DNA of 63,508 nucleotides, counting the filler, from Reclinomonas americana ATCC 50394 (lineage: Eukaryota), in NCBI GenBank assembly GCA_048213135.1. It is 7 parts of 2 records of this genome, joined end to end, with 100 filler letters (N's around TTAATTAATTAA, not from the genome) between each part and the next. Parts side by side here need not be neighbours in the genome. Positions count along the whole stretch, not along the records: positions 1 to 16,093 come from PS015069.1; positions 16,194 to 24,531 come from PS015069.1; positions 24,632 to 29,305 come from PS015069.1; positions 29,406 to 44,104 come from PS015069.1; positions 44,205 to 47,322 come from PS015069.1; positions 47,423 to 60,282 come from PS015070.1; positions 60,383 to 63,508 come from PS015070.1. The stretch is one strand, 5' to 3'. Under the pieces are notes generated by a model. It was not told the DNA's origin. It did no database searches and was given only the letters and a program-made list of their open reading frames with translations. Positions 60-63,391 of the stretch are shown piece after piece. The translations under genes and the position numbers were made by a program. Numbering within the stretch: position 1 is the first letter of the stretch; each line of letters starts with the position of its first letter.

Positions 60-730
60 CGCCAAACGGCTCGCCATCACTGCATTAATATGAAAGACAT
101 GCAAAAATGCGTGCACGTGAGACACGTGATGCACAAACAGGGAGGGTCTTGGTGCGACGCAACGGCGGGCTGATGCTGATCACAATCTCGCCAGTCGAGG
201 TCTGGTTGAAGGCCTGGATGGCGCAGTCAATGTTGAAGGTGGTGCCAGCGGGGCCAGACGGCGGGTTGACGTTGATGCTGTTGATGGTCACGCACTGGCC
301 GCTGCAGTCGTGGATCGGGCAGATCGGCAGCAGCTCGCACATGTACTACACCACACCACATAGCGTGTGAGCAATGGAGACGCAAGATTGCAGGAATGCA
401 GCATGCATGCCACACGAAACGATCGGGTCAAGGTCGGCCTCCTCCACAATCTTGATGAACTCGGTGATGCCGACATAGTCGCACAGGAGGTTGCACACGG
501 TGTCCTCCAGCTTGTTCTTCAGCATGCCGCACAGCTCCGAGCAGCCACCGACGACACCAGCCTGCGCATCGCATGCAATATGAGTGCAACGGAAAAAACA
601 TGCAAGCAGCGAGAGAGCATGCAGCACGCAACGTTGAGGATGATGTTGAGCACTGCGCGTGTGCACGGAAAGAGAGTGAACAGTGAGTGCAAGATGATGA
701 GTGGCTCGTCAGCAGCAAACGCGAAACGCA
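60..730 (-). CDS. Countin-like saposin-domain protein, N-terminal/middle exons (5' end missing; contig 1-785 is inverted relative to the last exons)
   Basis: Spliced translation LLNIILN|AGVVGGCSELCGMLKNKLEDTVCNLLCDYVGITEFIKIVEEADLDPI|YMCELLPICPIHDC...GEIVISISP|PDGEPFG shows the saposin Cys pattern typical of Dictyostelium countin. Confidence 0.75.
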
Positions 731-822
731 CTGCGGAGGGGAAGAGAGAGAGAGAGGAGGGGGTGAGCATTGCGCATAACGGACTNNNNNNNNNNNNNNN
801 NNNNNCCCTGTCTTGTGTGCAG

Positions 823-1092
823 ATGGTGAGCTCGTCCCGAAGGGCTTCCAGCCGGGCAACTACAACGTGCGCTTCCAGCTGCAGGCTGAGCCCAACGAGC
901 AGGAGGTGTGTCTCGTATGCATCATCATGCCTCTCTCCATCATTCTCCTCACGCCTTTGTTGCGCTTGACAGCCGTTCGGCCCGGGCACCTACAAGGTCC
1001 AGCTGGCCGTGTGCGAGGGCGAGTGCGGCAGCAAGCACCCCCACTCTGCTGTGTACGACGTCAAGACCGCCACTTTCCAGATCACTCGCTAA
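823..1092 (+). CDS. C-terminal two exons (823-905, 973-1092) of the countin-like protein
   Basis: DGELVPKGFQPGNYNVRFQLQAEPNEQE|PFGPGTYKVQLAVCEGECGSKHPHSAVYD...ITR* contains the countin C-terminal CEGECGSKHPHS motif. Intron phase matches the minus-strand exon 60-79. Confidence 0.75.
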
Positions 1093-1261
1093 GCCGTGTG
1101 ATGCACGCTCCGCTCCCCGTGTGCGGTGTCTTTGCTTCCCTTCTTTTGGCCAATATGAGCTCCGCACGAGCGTCCGCTTTTCCCGTGTTTGCTGGTCAAA
1201 TCTAGTGAACTGCGAAGGCACTCTTGTGTGTGGGCAACGCAGACAGCAGCATTCCTGTTCA

Positions 1262-1982
1262 TTACTGGCTGTCCTTGCGCTGCTGCTGCTGTCGCTCGGG
1301 GAGCACGGCCGCCAACAGGTCGAGCACGCCAATGACGCCATCGACAATGGTGATGGGCCACAGCAGGCGGTTCGGGTGCCACCGCACCATCGGCTCGCCG
1401 AATGTCACGAGCATGTCGCCGGCAAACTGGCTCAGGTTGGCGCTGTGTGGTGCACACAGAGTACAGTAAGAGTGACAAGCACAGGGCATGCGAGCGAGGG
1501 GGACGAGACAAACGCAACACGGCAAGCACGAACAGGTCCGAGCGAGGTCGGCGCAGAGCCATCTCGCGCTCCGCCAGTGTTGTCTCCGACACGCGTGTGC
1601 CCTGCACAAGCAGACACCCGTGCAGACCGTGTGTGTGTGAGAGAGAGCGAGGGTGGGGAAGAGGACTGAGAGAGAGACCTTGGCCGGCACCACCAGTCGC
1701 GACTGCATGATGGCGCGAATGCGACGCACCAGTGCAATGACCGACAGAGCCACCATTGACAAGTTCTGTGGAGAAAGACGAGGTGTGAGAGTGGTGTCTG
1801 CGACACGAGAAGCAGGCAGCGAGAACCATCAAGCCGAGAAATCTCAGCACGTCGGTGGAGACCAGCGACACGGGCCTCTCGCGAGTCAGCTTGAGTGCCA
1901 GTCCGCGGCCGTTGAAGAAGAAGTACTTGAATGCCATGGCGTGCCACACGGCGTTGCCGGCCAGCAGCACGCTCGTCAGCAT
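1262..1982 (-). CDS. Hypothetical small multi-pass membrane protein (spliced)
   Basis: ATG at 1982 and TAA at 1262. Hydrophobic segments MLTSVLLAGNAVWHAMAFKYFFF, SMVALSVIALV and WPITIVDGVIGVLDLLAAVL. Confidence 0.5.
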
Positions 1983-2089
1983 TGGCGCTGCGGAGGAGAA
2001 AAAGAGAACTCAACTCCGACGGAATAACAGAGCTTGTCGTTTTCATGCAACACAAGAGTTCATTGATTGAGAACGATAAACAAAGAGGG

Positions 2090-60282: not shown

Positions 60283-61132
60283 NNNNNNNNNNNNNNNNNN
60301 NNNNNNNNNNNNNNNNNNNNNNNNNNTTAATTAATTAANNNNNNNNNNNNNNNNNNNNNNNNNNNNNNNNNNNNNNNNNNNNTTGCTCCACCATGCGCCT
60401 GCGCGACCACCTGATCCAGTGCCATGGGCACCACCGACGACAAGCAGGCGGGAATCGCCTCCTCTCGCACCTCCAGCAACGACGATGATGAAACCGGCGC
60501 TCCTCCGGCAGCAGAGGAGCACTCGTCGACCAAGTGTGTGCGCACAGGTGTGGTGGGTCGACGAATGGGCGACGCTGTGTGGCGCAACACAGGCGCCTGC
60601 TCACTGCCACTGCCACTCATGTGCACTGGTGTGCCTCCTCGTCGCGACGAAGGCCGTGCGTTGCGCTTGGACGGAGTGGCACCCGACATGTGTGTCTCAA
60701 GAAATCAACACAAAAAAGAGTTGGGACGATGATGATCGGCGCAGAAATCGACCCTTTTTCTCTCTCGTCGCACTCGTAAAAAACTGAAAAACCAAATTGC
60801 ACGTCCTAGGTCGCCGGTCCATTTGATGGGTGTGTCGAGAAAAGATGAGGTTGACCACGGCGAGAGAGAGGCCGCGAAACACGGCAAGAGAGTGTGCCAC
60901 ATGAAAAAGAGAGAGGGCGAGCTGGCAAGAGAAAGACAAACAACAAAGACAACAAATGCAATGCGACTCCCTGCGCTCACTTGCACACACTCTTTCACAC
61001 TCTCACGCACACGTGCACACACCTGCATACAAAGGCGTCACTTTCAGAAAACATGCGTGTAATGAGAAACGAATGCCACGTGTCGACATCGACATGACGT
61101 CATGCATTCCACTCACTCACACTCACTCATCG

Positions 61133-61405
61133 ATGCGGCGACAACAGGCGCTCTTTGTTGCACTTGTGCTCTTGCTGCTTGCGCTTCTGCTGGTCAGCAG
61201 TGTCGCCGACGCAGCCAAGAAGAAGAAGAAGAACAAGGCCAAGAAGGACAAGCAAGCAAGTGAGTGTGCAAGAAAGAGTGTGAGAGTGTGTGTGTGTGAC
61301 TGAGAGAGAGTGTGTGTGTGCAGAGGTGGAGAGTGCGACGAGTGCACCACTGGTGGATGCGGGAGAGGGAACATTGACATCGGTGGTGGAAGAAGCAGGT
61401 GTGTG

Positions 61406-61441
<36 letters not shown>

Positions 61442-62161
61442 TGTGTGTGTGTGCGTGTGTGTGTGTGCATGCTGAGTGTTGTGTCTCTCTTGTAGGATCG
61501 ATCGGAAATGTGTTCCAACAGGCGGAGACTGCAGCTGGTTCGTCGTCTCTGCGTCTGTCTCTCTCTCTCTCGTGTCTTGTGCTCACCTCTCTGTCGCACG
61601 CACACAGATGCAGCTGCTGTGCCACCGCCCGAGGACGACGATGGAGATGGCGATGAGAAGAGCAGCAGTGCGTTCTTTTTTTGCGCGCGCGCTCTTTGCG
61701 CTTCATGTTGTGTTGTCTCACAGCTGCGCACAGAAGACGACGAGAAGGAGGCAGTGAAAGAGGAGGAAGAGGAGAAGAAGAAGAACGAGCCGCCACCACG
61801 CGAAGGCACGCCTTGTTGCTTGCTCTGCGTTGTGTTTCGCTGACTTGACTGACTGACGCTATCAGCCACGGCCGATCCGAATGAGCGCAACGGCATGTTT
61901 GATCACACCATGTGCCGGTGGAACTGTGCGCATACGCACTCGGATTGCAAGCGCTCGTGCGGTCGGGGATTCGAGGGTCGCAATTGCAGGTACCAGTGCA
62001 AGCGCAAGCGCCGTCGTTGCCGCAATCGGTGCTGGCGACGGCAGCAGGAGCTGTTTGCCACGTGCCAGGACTTCCGCCGCGGTGTCGATCTCATCCGTGA
62101 GATGAAGCTCATTGATGAGTGGACCTACGGCAAGTGCAAGGTCAGCCGCAAGAGGAACTAG
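61133..62161 (+). CDS. Secreted orphan protein: Lys/Glu-rich region plus a cationic CX3C-repeat C-terminus
   Basis: Signal peptide MRRQQALFVALVLLLLALLLVSSVADA; last exon CRWNCAHTHSDCKRSCGRGFEGRNCRYQCKRKRRRCRNRCWRR. Confidence 0.65.
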
Positions 62162-62294
62162 TTGATCGTTCACACAGGGTGAGAGACGGAGAGAAGAGAG
62201 ACAGAGGCAGTGTATCAACAGCATCGCCCCGTGATTATATCATGCAATGGTACATTCGCTTAGCACACACTCCCTCGCCCTTCCTCCGCTCGCC

Positions 62295-63391
62295 TCACGT
62301 CACCGGCCGCTTGACCACGAGCCGAGAGACGAGATAGGTCGAGCGCAACACACTGGCCAGTTCGGATACCGCCTGTCGAAGCAGAAGCATTGTCAGCATC
62401 TCCCCCAGCCGCCGCTCTTTTCCTTTATCCGCGCCACTCACCTCCTTGTCGACTTGCCGATTGGCGCCAATGTCGAGTGTCTTTAGCGACTTGTGCGCAA
62501 ACGCGGCACGGGTCAGCGACTGCACGCCGGCGGCATCAAAAATGTTGCTGTGCAGGTTGAGCGAGCGCAGCGTGTTGTTGCCCTGCAGGCCCTTGGCGAG
62601 GCCGTCGAGCCCAATGTTGCCAATGCCGGTGCCACTCAGGTCGAGCGAGCGCAGTGATTTGGTCTGCTGCAGACCGCGCGCCAGCGCCAGTGCGCCGTCG
62701 TCACCGAGAGCGTTGTGCGCCAGCGACATGCGCTTCAGCACCTGCGAGGTGCCGAGTGCCACCTCCAGGGCCGCTGCACCGCCCGGCCCGATCTTGTTGT
62801 GCGACAGGTCGAGCACAAACAGCGAGACACTGACACGCACAAAGTCGGCGACGGCCGCCGCCCCCTCGTCGCCAATCTCGTTGTACGACAGGTCAAAGGT
62901 GGAGAGGGAGATGTTAATGTACAGTTGGGTGATGAGGGCGAGCACGCCGGCGTCGGAGATGCGGTTGTTGGCCAGCGACAGCGTGTGTATTCCTGAAAAA
63001 GAGAGTGAGCGAAAAAAAAGGAAGAAGATCTACATGTGGCAGGGCGCGCGCAACTCGAATTGCGTGACACCGCCTCGCCGAGAATATCCATGAACGCGTC
63101 GGTGAGGTGCGTGTGATGCAAGTACACACTGGTCACGTGCTGCACGCGCACAATGGTGTCGCAGATGGCGCGACAGCCACCGAGCGTCATGGACGACTCC
63201 ACCAGGCGCAAGTCATGCTGGAACTCGTCGGCCAGCGACTGCCCCACGCTGATGCTCGGTTCCGCGCCGAGCCGCTCACAGTCCGTAATGTAGTTGGCGA
63301 TCATCACCGAGCACCGCAACGCCGACATCCACGTCTCGCGCTCCAGCGGTGACAGCGCCGCCATGAAGAGCACACGTTCGGAGCTCTCCAC
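62295..63391 (-). CDS. PH-domain end followed by RNI-like leucine-rich repeats (5' part outside the window)
   Basis: RVLFMAALSPLERETWMSALR (PH C-terminal helix); LRRs FDLSYNEIGDEGA, LDLSHNKIGPGGA, MSLAHNALGDDGA and LDLSGTGIGNIG. Confidence 0.8.

Follow-up and report, generated by a model that had tools for sequence, protein, structure and literature searches.

Gene Content and Intron Prediction

The DNA considered here is a window of 63,508 bases of joined contigs from Reclinomonas americana ATCC 50394 (assembly GCA_048213135.1), with a G+C content of 49–59% in 4-kb steps. The window is gene-dense, and its genes, among them eIF3h-like, TRAPPC8-like, choline-transporter and trypsin-like genes, genes with RhoGAP, WD40 or HORMA domains and a set of three tandem paralogs, are interrupted by short introns. 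Our subject is the 5′ splice site (donor) of these introns, which comes in two classes: an ordinary class that begins GTNNG and mostly follows an exonic G, and a second class that begins GTTNNG, most often GTTGCG, follows A, C or T in all but one candidate, and carries the intron-side consensus one base later. The window contains 25 runs of N. Six identical spacers (44 N, TTAATTAATTAA and 44 N, at 16094–16193, 24532–24631, 29306–29405, 44105–44204, 47323–47422 and 60283–60382) carry an all-frame stop linker and join separate pieces, so that genes on either side of a spacer are not necessarily genomic neighbours.

The evidence base consists of the window DNA, Pfam profiles and paralogs within the window. 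Introns were predicted with a Viterbi gene finder whose codon log-odds were trained on the window itself and which admits any GT donor, any AG acceptor and introns of 35–500 bases under a mild length prior, scoring only the 3′ end, by a YAG acceptor and a YTNAY branch-like motif 8–45 bases upstream. Run without a donor model (pass 3), the finder returned 146 introns. Pass 4 added a donor bonus computed from intron bases alone, for GTNNG(T) or GTTNNG(T) and with position −1 ignored, and returned 181, from which we drew a filtered set of 130 (gene score of at least 20, length 45–150 bases, YAG acceptor, branch-like motif, no (GT)4 start). Donors beginning GTNNG are called class 1 and those beginning GTTNNG class 2; a slash marks the exon–intron boundary.

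Two Classes of 5′ Splice Site

Even when no donor model is imposed, more introns start with GTTGCG (21 of 146) than with any other hexamer, GTGCGT coming next with 13. GTTGCG is also over-represented in the window as such: it has 96 copies counting both strands, where dinucleotide-preserving shuffles give 66.2 ± 8.2 and none of 100 reaches 96. The filtered set of 130 introns divides into 89 GTNNG, 34 GTTNNG and seven other donors. About 70% of introns thus start GTNNG(T), mostly after an exonic G, and about a quarter start GTTNNGT, four fifths of the latter with GTTGCG.

The two classes separate by the last base of the exon. G precedes 62 of the 89 class-1 donors and a single one of the 34 class-2 donors (Fisher p = 2.6e-12), and the contrast is present without the donor model (41/65 against 2/29; Fisher p = 2.5e-7) and after one of two near-identical tandem paralogs is dropped (61/88 against 1/33). 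Neutral coding expectation at the same intron phases would place 6.4–9.95 G before the 34 class-2 donors, and the probability of finding one or fewer lies between 0.0066 and 8e-5. Among the 96 copies of GTTGCG, the 31 predicted donors are preceded by A (8), T (12) or C (11) and never by G; G stands before nine of the remaining 65. These nine GGTTGCG copies lie on the strand opposite a predicted gene, within predicted exons or an intron, or in gene-free DNA, and none occupies an expected donor spot.

Altogether we count 50 class-2 candidates, 42 predicted and eight added by hand (Table 1), with T (19), A (17), C (13) and G (1) at −1. A preliminary description of this DNA, in which the class was first noticed, had put the total at 35–45, somewhat below the present count, and had found none after an exonic G. 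The latter statement fits 49 of the 50, the exception being gag/GTTTTGT at 23949, next to an unverified first exon. The sequence at each of its 17 listed sites is GTT[GTC][CA]G, with A, C or T in front. As donors, 12 of them are recovered by pass 4 (6525, 19232, 19556, 24996, 37685, 38001, 48050, 48238, 420, 632, 10577 and 23698) and two more, 163 and 37505, hold by reading; the other three are less secure, with 8731 and 20421 adjoining N runs and 10871 having good signals and no homology support.

Class 2 is found chiefly where the protein code disallows a G at the exon end. The rule runs in one direction only, as had been proposed, because ordinary donors also follow other bases: in the filtered set, GTNNG serves 27 and class 2 serves 33 of the 60 exons that do not end in G. 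Unshifted donors of this kind include A/GTGCGT at 8221, T/GTGCGT at 38375 (previously placed at about 38374) and T/GTGAGT at 22239, across which a Pfam profile runs on from position 120 to 121. The class-2 share at non-G ends is probably an underestimate, since sites 138 and 37528 were called as ordinary donors where the class-2 sites 163 and 37505 fit better. Within the window, the existence of two donor classes is confirmed and statistically solid.

Exactness of the Cuts

Pfam profiles matched to exons scanned singly place several cuts to the residue. The TRAPPC-Trs85 profile passes from position 301 to 302 over the class-2 junction at 19232 and from 383 to 384 over that at 19556, and the HORMA profile from 69 to 70 over that at 48050. 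Ordinary-register junctions behave in the same way, with Choline_transpo continuing from 219 to 220 over the G/GTTTGT donor at 21871 and from 120 to 121 over t/GTGAGT at 22239. When Pfam was run again, on 53 exons out of the 58 adjoining class-2 donors (five had already been scanned), no further exact junction emerged.

Three tandem paralogs on the minus strand (11740–12520, 12855–13620 and 13980–14720, within 11740–14720) supply nine further cuts. Each copy has one G/GTAYG intron and three class-2 introns (t/GTTGCGT, a or t/GTTGAGT, and t/GTTGCG), so the earlier count of three per paralog is right for all three copies; the name ABM given to the family is unconfirmed, as no single exon matched a Pfam profile. 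Spliced at GT/AG, the copies encode three proteins of 126 residues that share an aligned stop and are 67–89% identical with no indel. Exon lengths and intron positions are identical among the copies, while intron lengths differ (88/79/92, 85/104/98, 92/69/62 and 70/90/62 bases). Shifting any of the nine class-2 cuts by one or two bases breaks the 126-residue frame. In the alignment with the diverged paralog, identity drops and indels start directly after GTTGCGT, GTTGAGTG and GTTGCG; the donor motif is under constraint, and the rest of the intron is not.

Two of the sites that hold by reading were joined by eye. At 163 the frame continues into a further exon that ends G/GTGAGT. The donor at 37505, with the acceptor at 37642, joins ...ISLQSPLGTPF to GGTLINSNSIMTAA, which we take to be a trypsin-family motif, and neighbouring exons give weak Pfam trypsin matches.

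These junctions bear directly on the suspicion that class 2 is an artefact, either of wrong junctions from gene modelling or of a true cut at GTT/GC. The suspicion has some footing: the gene finder misplaced at least two donors (138 for 163 and 37528 for 37505), and a cut after GTT keeps the reading frame. Yet the Pfam profiles are contiguous at three class-2 junctions, the nine paralog frames need the GT cut, and the reversed sequence and two block-shuffled copies gave no confident introns, although this last control is lenient, since genes vanish from such sequences too. We consider an artefact scarcely credible. GC-AG introns in particular were rejected: a cut after GTT would keep the frame but add a residue absent from the Pfam profiles at the three junctions, it is impossible for GTTTCG, GTTCCG and GTTGAG, in which the intron would start with TC, CC or GA, and it would put T at −1.

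Anatomy of the Two Classes

Class-1 donors are degenerate, with G at +3 in 51 of 89, C (34), T (29) or A (18) at +4, and T at +6 in 67. Class-2 donors are uniform: T+3 is present by definition, followed by G+4 in 28 of 34, C+5 in 29 and T+7 in 27, and the intron-side G and T stand at +6 and +7, not +5 and +6, with no G+5 by definition. When one matrix is slid by one base the two agree, down to a weak G preference at +7 in class 1 and +8 in class 2. The proposal that the two are the same motif with the cut moved by one base is borne out, as both reduce to G-[G/T]-T-N-N-G-T with cleavage ahead of the first GT.

The exon side is short. Where a class-1 donor follows G, position −2 is G in 6 of 62, A in 18, C in 19 and T in 19, so that the AG/GT exon side is reduced to a single G. 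In either class, the anchoring G is seldom preceded by another G (6/62 at −2 in class 1, 1/34 at −1 in class 2). On the intron side, donors predicted without a donor model that lack G+5 and have G+6 and T+7 carry T+3 in 23 of 25, against a window-wide background of 115/433 for the motif. Because T+3 is obligatory, it acts like the paired U of a GU and not like a free bulge.

Codon usage at the exon ends shows the same avoidance of G. Among phase-0 class-2 exons, 10 of 17 end in codons for Asp, His, Ile, Asn or Tyr, amino acids without a codon ending in G. Gln at such ends is encoded by CAA in all three cases, although 73% of Gln codons across the predicted coding sequence are CAG, and Arg is encoded by AGA, among the two rarest for that residue. 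One G-ending codon was observed at these ends where 3.86 were expected (p = 0.019).

At the 3′ end the classes are alike. The acceptor has C at −3 (84/89 in class 1, 27/34 in class 2), preceded by G or A at −4. Both classes carry branch-like motifs, CTCAC, CTGAC and CTCAT, whose median distance from the exon is 20 bases; median intron lengths are 72 and 71 bases for classes 1 and 2, and base composition is the same. Two known kinds of unusual intron were considered and rejected. Introner-like mobile introns do not fit, since a blastn comparison of all 130 filtered introns with one another picked up nothing beyond the introns of the tandem paralogs and simple repeats. U12-type introns have an RTATCCTT donor and a TCCTTRAY branch site near the 3′ end; the donors here read GTTGCGT, and the branch motifs and their distance are those of class 1.

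A Proposed Shifted Pairing Register and Its Alternatives

The donor sequences suggest how the two classes could be read by one machinery. A class-2 site would be the class-1 word G-G-T-N-N-G-T in which T has replaced the second base; this moves the sole GT one base in the 5′ direction, where the cut would be made. The U1 small nuclear RNA (snRNA), or a variant of it, would pair one base shifted, so that intron G+1 replaces exon G−1 and U+3 replaces U+2, while later steps would cut at GU. We regard such a shifted register of U1 or a U1 variant as the most likely mechanism, with roughly even confidence. The preliminary description had arrived at the same idea, and its geometry fits every sequence statistic computed here; predicted pairing of class 2 to a standard U1 comes out near zero.

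That pairing was calculated for donors from −3 to +9 against the standard U1 5′ end AUACUUACCUG (taken from PMC4856993) with ViennaRNA duplexfold, and the organism's own U1 may differ. Class-1 donors reach a mean of −5.7 kcal/mol, with the ordinary register optimal in 69 of 89.

Several observations weigh against a shifted register. First, class-2 donors average only −1.25 kcal/mol with the standard U1, and the shifted arrangement (G+1:C9, G+6:C4) is the optimum in only 2 of 34. Second, the pair count of H/GTTGCGT with that U1 is not above that of H/GTGCGT, yet class 2 occupies 33 of the 60 non-G exon ends. Third, C+5, present in 29 of 34, would face a U or pseudouridine of the standard U1, and class 1 shows no preference for A at −2 (18/62), so that pairing to U1 position 10 is not evident. 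Finally, all junctions are deduced from DNA, and the sample is one 63.5-kb window in which 9 of the 50 candidates come from one tandem gene family. An unmodified standard U1, given its weak predicted pairing with class 2, does not account for the high frequency and uniformity of the class. The misfits imply that the U1 5′ end differs, or that a variant U1 exists, or that proteins, U6 or U5 carry much of the recognition. An Rfam search of the window gave no match at gathering scores and, at E ≤ 1, only microsatellite-driven miRNA look-alikes and no snRNA.

One way to accommodate the misfits would be a second RNA of the U1 type, with full complementarity to GUUGCGU at its 5′ end, which would read class 2 and leave class 1 to the main U1; the register would still be shifted, with no mismatch needed. 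The greater uniformity of class 2 (G+4 28/34, C+5 29/34 and T+7 27/34, against G+3 51/89 and C+4 34/89 in class 1) fits a need for near-perfect pairing, a standard U1 is predicted to pair poorly with class 2, and variant U1 snRNAs are described as expressed in humans in the parts of PMC3561869 and PMC10870369 drawn on here. By itself, though, such an RNA leaves unexplained why G−1 falls below the neutral expectation, and the two classes do not differ in their 3′ signals, with no other mark of separate machinery. We think a dedicated second snRNA unlikely, though a serious candidate.

A second alternative keeps U1 in place and bulges the donor: U1 would pair G+1 and U+2 normally, one U would be looped out and GCGU would pair as usual. 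The cut and the C8:G+1 pair would then keep their usual relation, with as many pairs as in the shifted register. Human 5′ splice sites provide a precedent in the +2/+3 bulge, of which the summary in PMC4856993 counts 68 predicted sites, and class 2 resembles them in having an extra U after GU and downstream bases that pair as usual. The exon side argues otherwise. In the bulge register −1 still faces C9 and its G stays paired with U1, so that G−1 would be expected as often as in class 1 (70%, 62/89), and it is found in 1/34 (3%), with G-ending synonymous codons mostly avoided there. A free bulge at +3 would moreover allow any base, where T is present in 23 of 25; the arrangement fits only if U+2 is the base looped out. 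We judge a bulged U improbable.

A third possibility moves recognition mainly downstream of U1, with class 2 as an intron-side class read by U6, U5 or LUC7-type proteins and the extra U tolerated in the active site. Two main types of 5′ splice site are described in plants and animals, an exon-side AG//GU and an intron-side //GURAG class (PMC9803359, PMC11732430, in the parts available to us), and LUC7 'handedness' is reported to bear on them (PMC11842720, likewise in part). The window displays what these sources treat as the hallmark of the two classes: its donor classes are separable by sequence, and a G at −1 trades off against intron-side strength, the two being anticorrelated. The described classes, however, share one register, at least as far as those accounts go, whereas the intron-side motif here sits exactly one base away from its usual place and requires T+3. 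Recognition mainly after U1 is in our view quite improbable as the source of class 2.

Returning to the shifted register, we offer a broader proposal more tentatively and with somewhat less than even confidence: the 5′ splice code of this organism may be a seven-base word, G-K-U-N-N-G-U, that floats by one base relative to the cut, with a shifted helix of U1 or a U1 variant in mainstream use at about a quarter of introns.

Comparison with Known Splice Sites and Implications

GUUAAGU is an example of a mammalian 5′ splice site in the +1 shifted register. Class 2 is like such sites in being cut at GU, in having U+3 and no G+5, in presenting its consensus one base late (positions +3 to +7 match +2 to +6 of an ordinary site), in pairing poorly in the ordinary register (no G+5, G−1 in 1/34) and in offering a G+1 that could oppose U1 C9; it is unlike them in that the shifted duplex is not more stable with standard U1 (2/34). 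The shifted register (Roca and Krainer, 2009) and the +3 or +2 bulge (Roca et al., 2012) are summarised by Tan et al. (2016; PMC4856993), who estimate that validated non-canonical registers together make up 1.5% of 201,541 human 5′ splice sites. Set against that rarity, 34 of 130 introns in the window are class 2, and the motif is a GC-rich GTTGCGT tied to a coding constraint at the exon end. The papers on shifted U1 base-pairing surveyed here, going by their titles, concern human, yeast, worm or viral systems, and at that level none of them describes routine use across a lineage.

The ordinary class also has published parallels. Ostreococcus (PMC2483917) and Micromonas (PMC3879977), which are GC-rich green picoalgae, are described as having AG/GTGCGT(G) donors and CTGAC branch sites, and the ordinary class here shares with them the GTGCGT preference and the CTGAC-type branch motif. 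The main-text portions of those descriptions on which we draw mention no GTTGCGT class, supplementary logos aside. According to the same portions, introns in the low-GC regions of Mamiellophyceae are AT-rich and have no branch motif, unlike the introns of the window. A literature search returned no description of a GTTGCGT donor class, although one may be mentioned within a genome paper or in supplementary logos.

If the floating seven-base word is the true code, introns could follow any codon, and co-adapted changes would be implied in the U1 5′ end or in U1-C, LUC7 or Prp8. The organism would then be a natural system in which U1 register is uncoupled from the choice of cleavage site genome-wide. 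Were this borne out, the U1 register could be said to have evolved into a regular second code, serving about one intron in four where human cases are rare and were discovered one by one, and it would explain how introns are retained where protein sequence forbids an exonic G. There is also a practical side: gene finders and splice-site scores trained on GTNNG donors would rate GTTGCGT as very weak, because it has neither G−1 nor G+5, and many genes of this organism and its relatives could be wrongly annotated as a result.

Donor Sites and Neighbouring Genes

Table 1. Class-2 donors and candidates, followed by three donors in the ordinary register. Lower-case letters are exon bases. Both passes: predicted with and without the donor model (passes 4 and 3).
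Positions	Strand	Donor	Gene or location	Class	Support
157–163	−	gcc/GTTGCGT		2	site of the preliminary description; frame by eye into exon ending G/GTGAGT
414–420	−	atc/GTTTCGT		2	both passes
626–632	−	aac/GTTGCGT		2	both passes
1512–1518	−	cgt/GTTGCGT		2	pass 4, filtered set
3808–3814	+	att/GTTCAGT		2, doubtful	pass 4 only; gene score 0; opposite stronger minus-strand gene
4882–4888	−	att/GTTGCGT		2	both passes
5248–5254	−	gct/GTTGCGT		2	both passes
6525–6531	+	ata/GTTTCGT	eIF3h-like (Pfam JAB, eIF3h_C)	2	both passes
8731–8737	+	aca/GTTGCGC		2, candidate	sequence confirmed; intron enters N run at 8755
10571–10577	−	gca/GTTGCGA	rubrerythrin-like	2	pass 4, filtered set
10865–10871	−	caa/GTTGCGT		2, candidate	CTCAC branch-like motif and CTGCAG acceptor downstream; no homology support
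11948–11954	−	tct/GTTGCGC	paralog P1, intron 4	2	paralog alignment, 126-residue frame test
12114–12120	−	gca/GTTGAGT	paralog P1, intron 3	2	paralog alignment, frame test
12243–12249	−	ttt/GTTGCGT	paralog P1, intron 2	2	paralog alignment, frame test
13080–13086	−	act/GTTGCGT	paralog P2, intron 4	2	paralog alignment, frame test
13223–13229	−	gca/GTTGAGT	paralog P2, intron 3	2	paralog alignment, frame test
13371–13377	−	ctt/GTTGCGT	paralog P2, intron 2	2	paralog alignment, frame test
14180–14186	−	act/GTTGCGT	paralog P3, intron 4	2	paralog alignment, frame test
14316–14322	−	gct/GTTGAGT	paralog P3, intron 3	2	paralog alignment, frame test
14458–14464	−	ctt/GTTGCGT	paralog P3, intron 2	2	paralog alignment, frame test
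15412–15418	−	gac/GTTGCGT		2	both passes
19232–19238	+	caa/GTTCCGT	TRAPPC8-like	2	TRAPPC-Trs85 301 to 302
19556–19562	+	aga/GTTGCGT	TRAPPC8-like	2	TRAPPC-Trs85 383 to 384
20421–20427	+	cct/GTTGCGT		2, candidate	sequence confirmed; 3′ end hidden by N run at 20470
23692–23698	−	caa/GTTGAGT		2	pass 4, filtered set
23943–23949	−	gag/GTTTTGT		2, candidate	only one after G; predicted; no homology support for first exon; possibly a weak ordinary donor
24996–25002	+	att/GTTGCGC	RhoGAP	2	both passes; exon ends within RhoGAP profile at 64 of 148
25985–25991	+	gac/GTTGCGC		2	both passes
26607–26613	+	gat/GTTGCGC		2	pass 4, filtered set
27349–27355	+	caa/GTTGCGC		2	pass 4, filtered set
28028–28034	+	gac/GTTGCGT		2	both passes
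33422–33428	+	tgc/GTTGCGT		2, candidate	pass 4 only; weak gene (score 12)
34758–34764	−	aac/GTTGCGT		2	both passes
37505–37511	+	ttt/GTTGCGT	trypsin-like	2	joined by eye; predictor chose wrong GT
37685–37691	+	cgc/GTTGCGT		2	both passes
38001–38007	+	cga/GTTGCGT		2	both passes; exon lengths match trypsin profile positions
38173–38179	+	aca/GTTTCGC		2, candidate	pass 4; pass 3 took GT 9 bases downstream, same acceptor
39333–39339	−	att/GTTTCGT		2, candidate	pass 4 only; 72-base intron (multiple of 3), exon in pass 3
40328–40334	−	aca/GTTGTGT	WD40	2	both passes
41296–41302	−	cgc/GTTGCGT	WD40	2	both passes
45254–45260	+	cac/GTTGCGT		2	both passes
45644–45650	+	cat/GTTGCGT		2	both passes
45786–45792	+	gca/GTTGCGT		2	pass 4, filtered set
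45996–46002	+	gtc/GTTGCGT	after EF-hand exon (Pfam)	2	both passes
48050–48056	+	tat/GTTGCGT	HORMA	2	HORMA profile 69 to 70
48238–48244	+	aga/GTTGCGT	HORMA	2	both passes
58191–58197	−	tca/GTTGCGC		2	pass 4, filtered set
58436–58442	−	gat/GTTGCGT		2	both passes
58691–58697	−	gtc/GTTGCGT		2	pass 4, filtered set
63048–63054	−	cga/GTTGCGC	before LRR exon (Pfam)	2	both passes
8221–8226	+	a/GTGCGT		ordinary register after non-G	sequence; both passes
22234–22239	−	t/GTGAGT		ordinary register after non-G	Choline_transpo 120 to 121
21866–21871	−	g/GTTTGT		1, comparison	Choline_transpo 219 to 220

A few of the genes merit mention in their own right. The trypsin-like gene (37400–38800, plus strand) consists of many short exons, and after ...IMTAA its spliced reading lacks the usual His-Cys; this may point to a protease homologue that is inactive or to a wrong junction after IMTAA. 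TRAPPC8-like pieces lie on opposite strands, at 18761–19907 on the plus strand and, as a match to the TPPC8 C-terminal Ig-like domain, at 14960–15154 on the minus strand. A search for homologous proteins with the exons at 5255–5902 (minus strand) and 6784–7173 (plus strand) gave no matches.

Amid an otherwise intron-rich stretch lies an intron-less gene for a dihydroorotate dehydrogenase (DHODH) of 320 residues (36143–37105, minus strand), over which the gene finder placed spurious plus-strand exons. Compared with the PDB, the protein matches bacterial DHODH A chains (E about 6e-50) and chains labelled 'dihydroorotate dehydrogenase (fumarate)' (E 1e-42 to 3e-48) about equally. A cluster look-up returned bacterial DHODH clusters and, for the choline transporter, plant-labelled clusters; scanning metagenomes with the DHODH protein produced 327 pattern matches but no relative. 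The DHODH gene is possibly a bacterial-type acquisition. A rubrerythrin-like gene of several small exons (about 10020–10900, minus strand) has weak Pfam Rubrerythrin matches and a RYLYFAQQADVEG stretch, and it is tempting to speculate that this gene and a fumarate-type DHODH reflect a low-oxygen lifestyle.

Finally, microsatellites of the types (ACGT)n, (GA)n and (GT)n occur at 9437–9560 and beside many of the N runs, where they border the assembly gaps, and the (ACGT)n tract yields false matches to Rfam miRNA families at relaxed thresholds.

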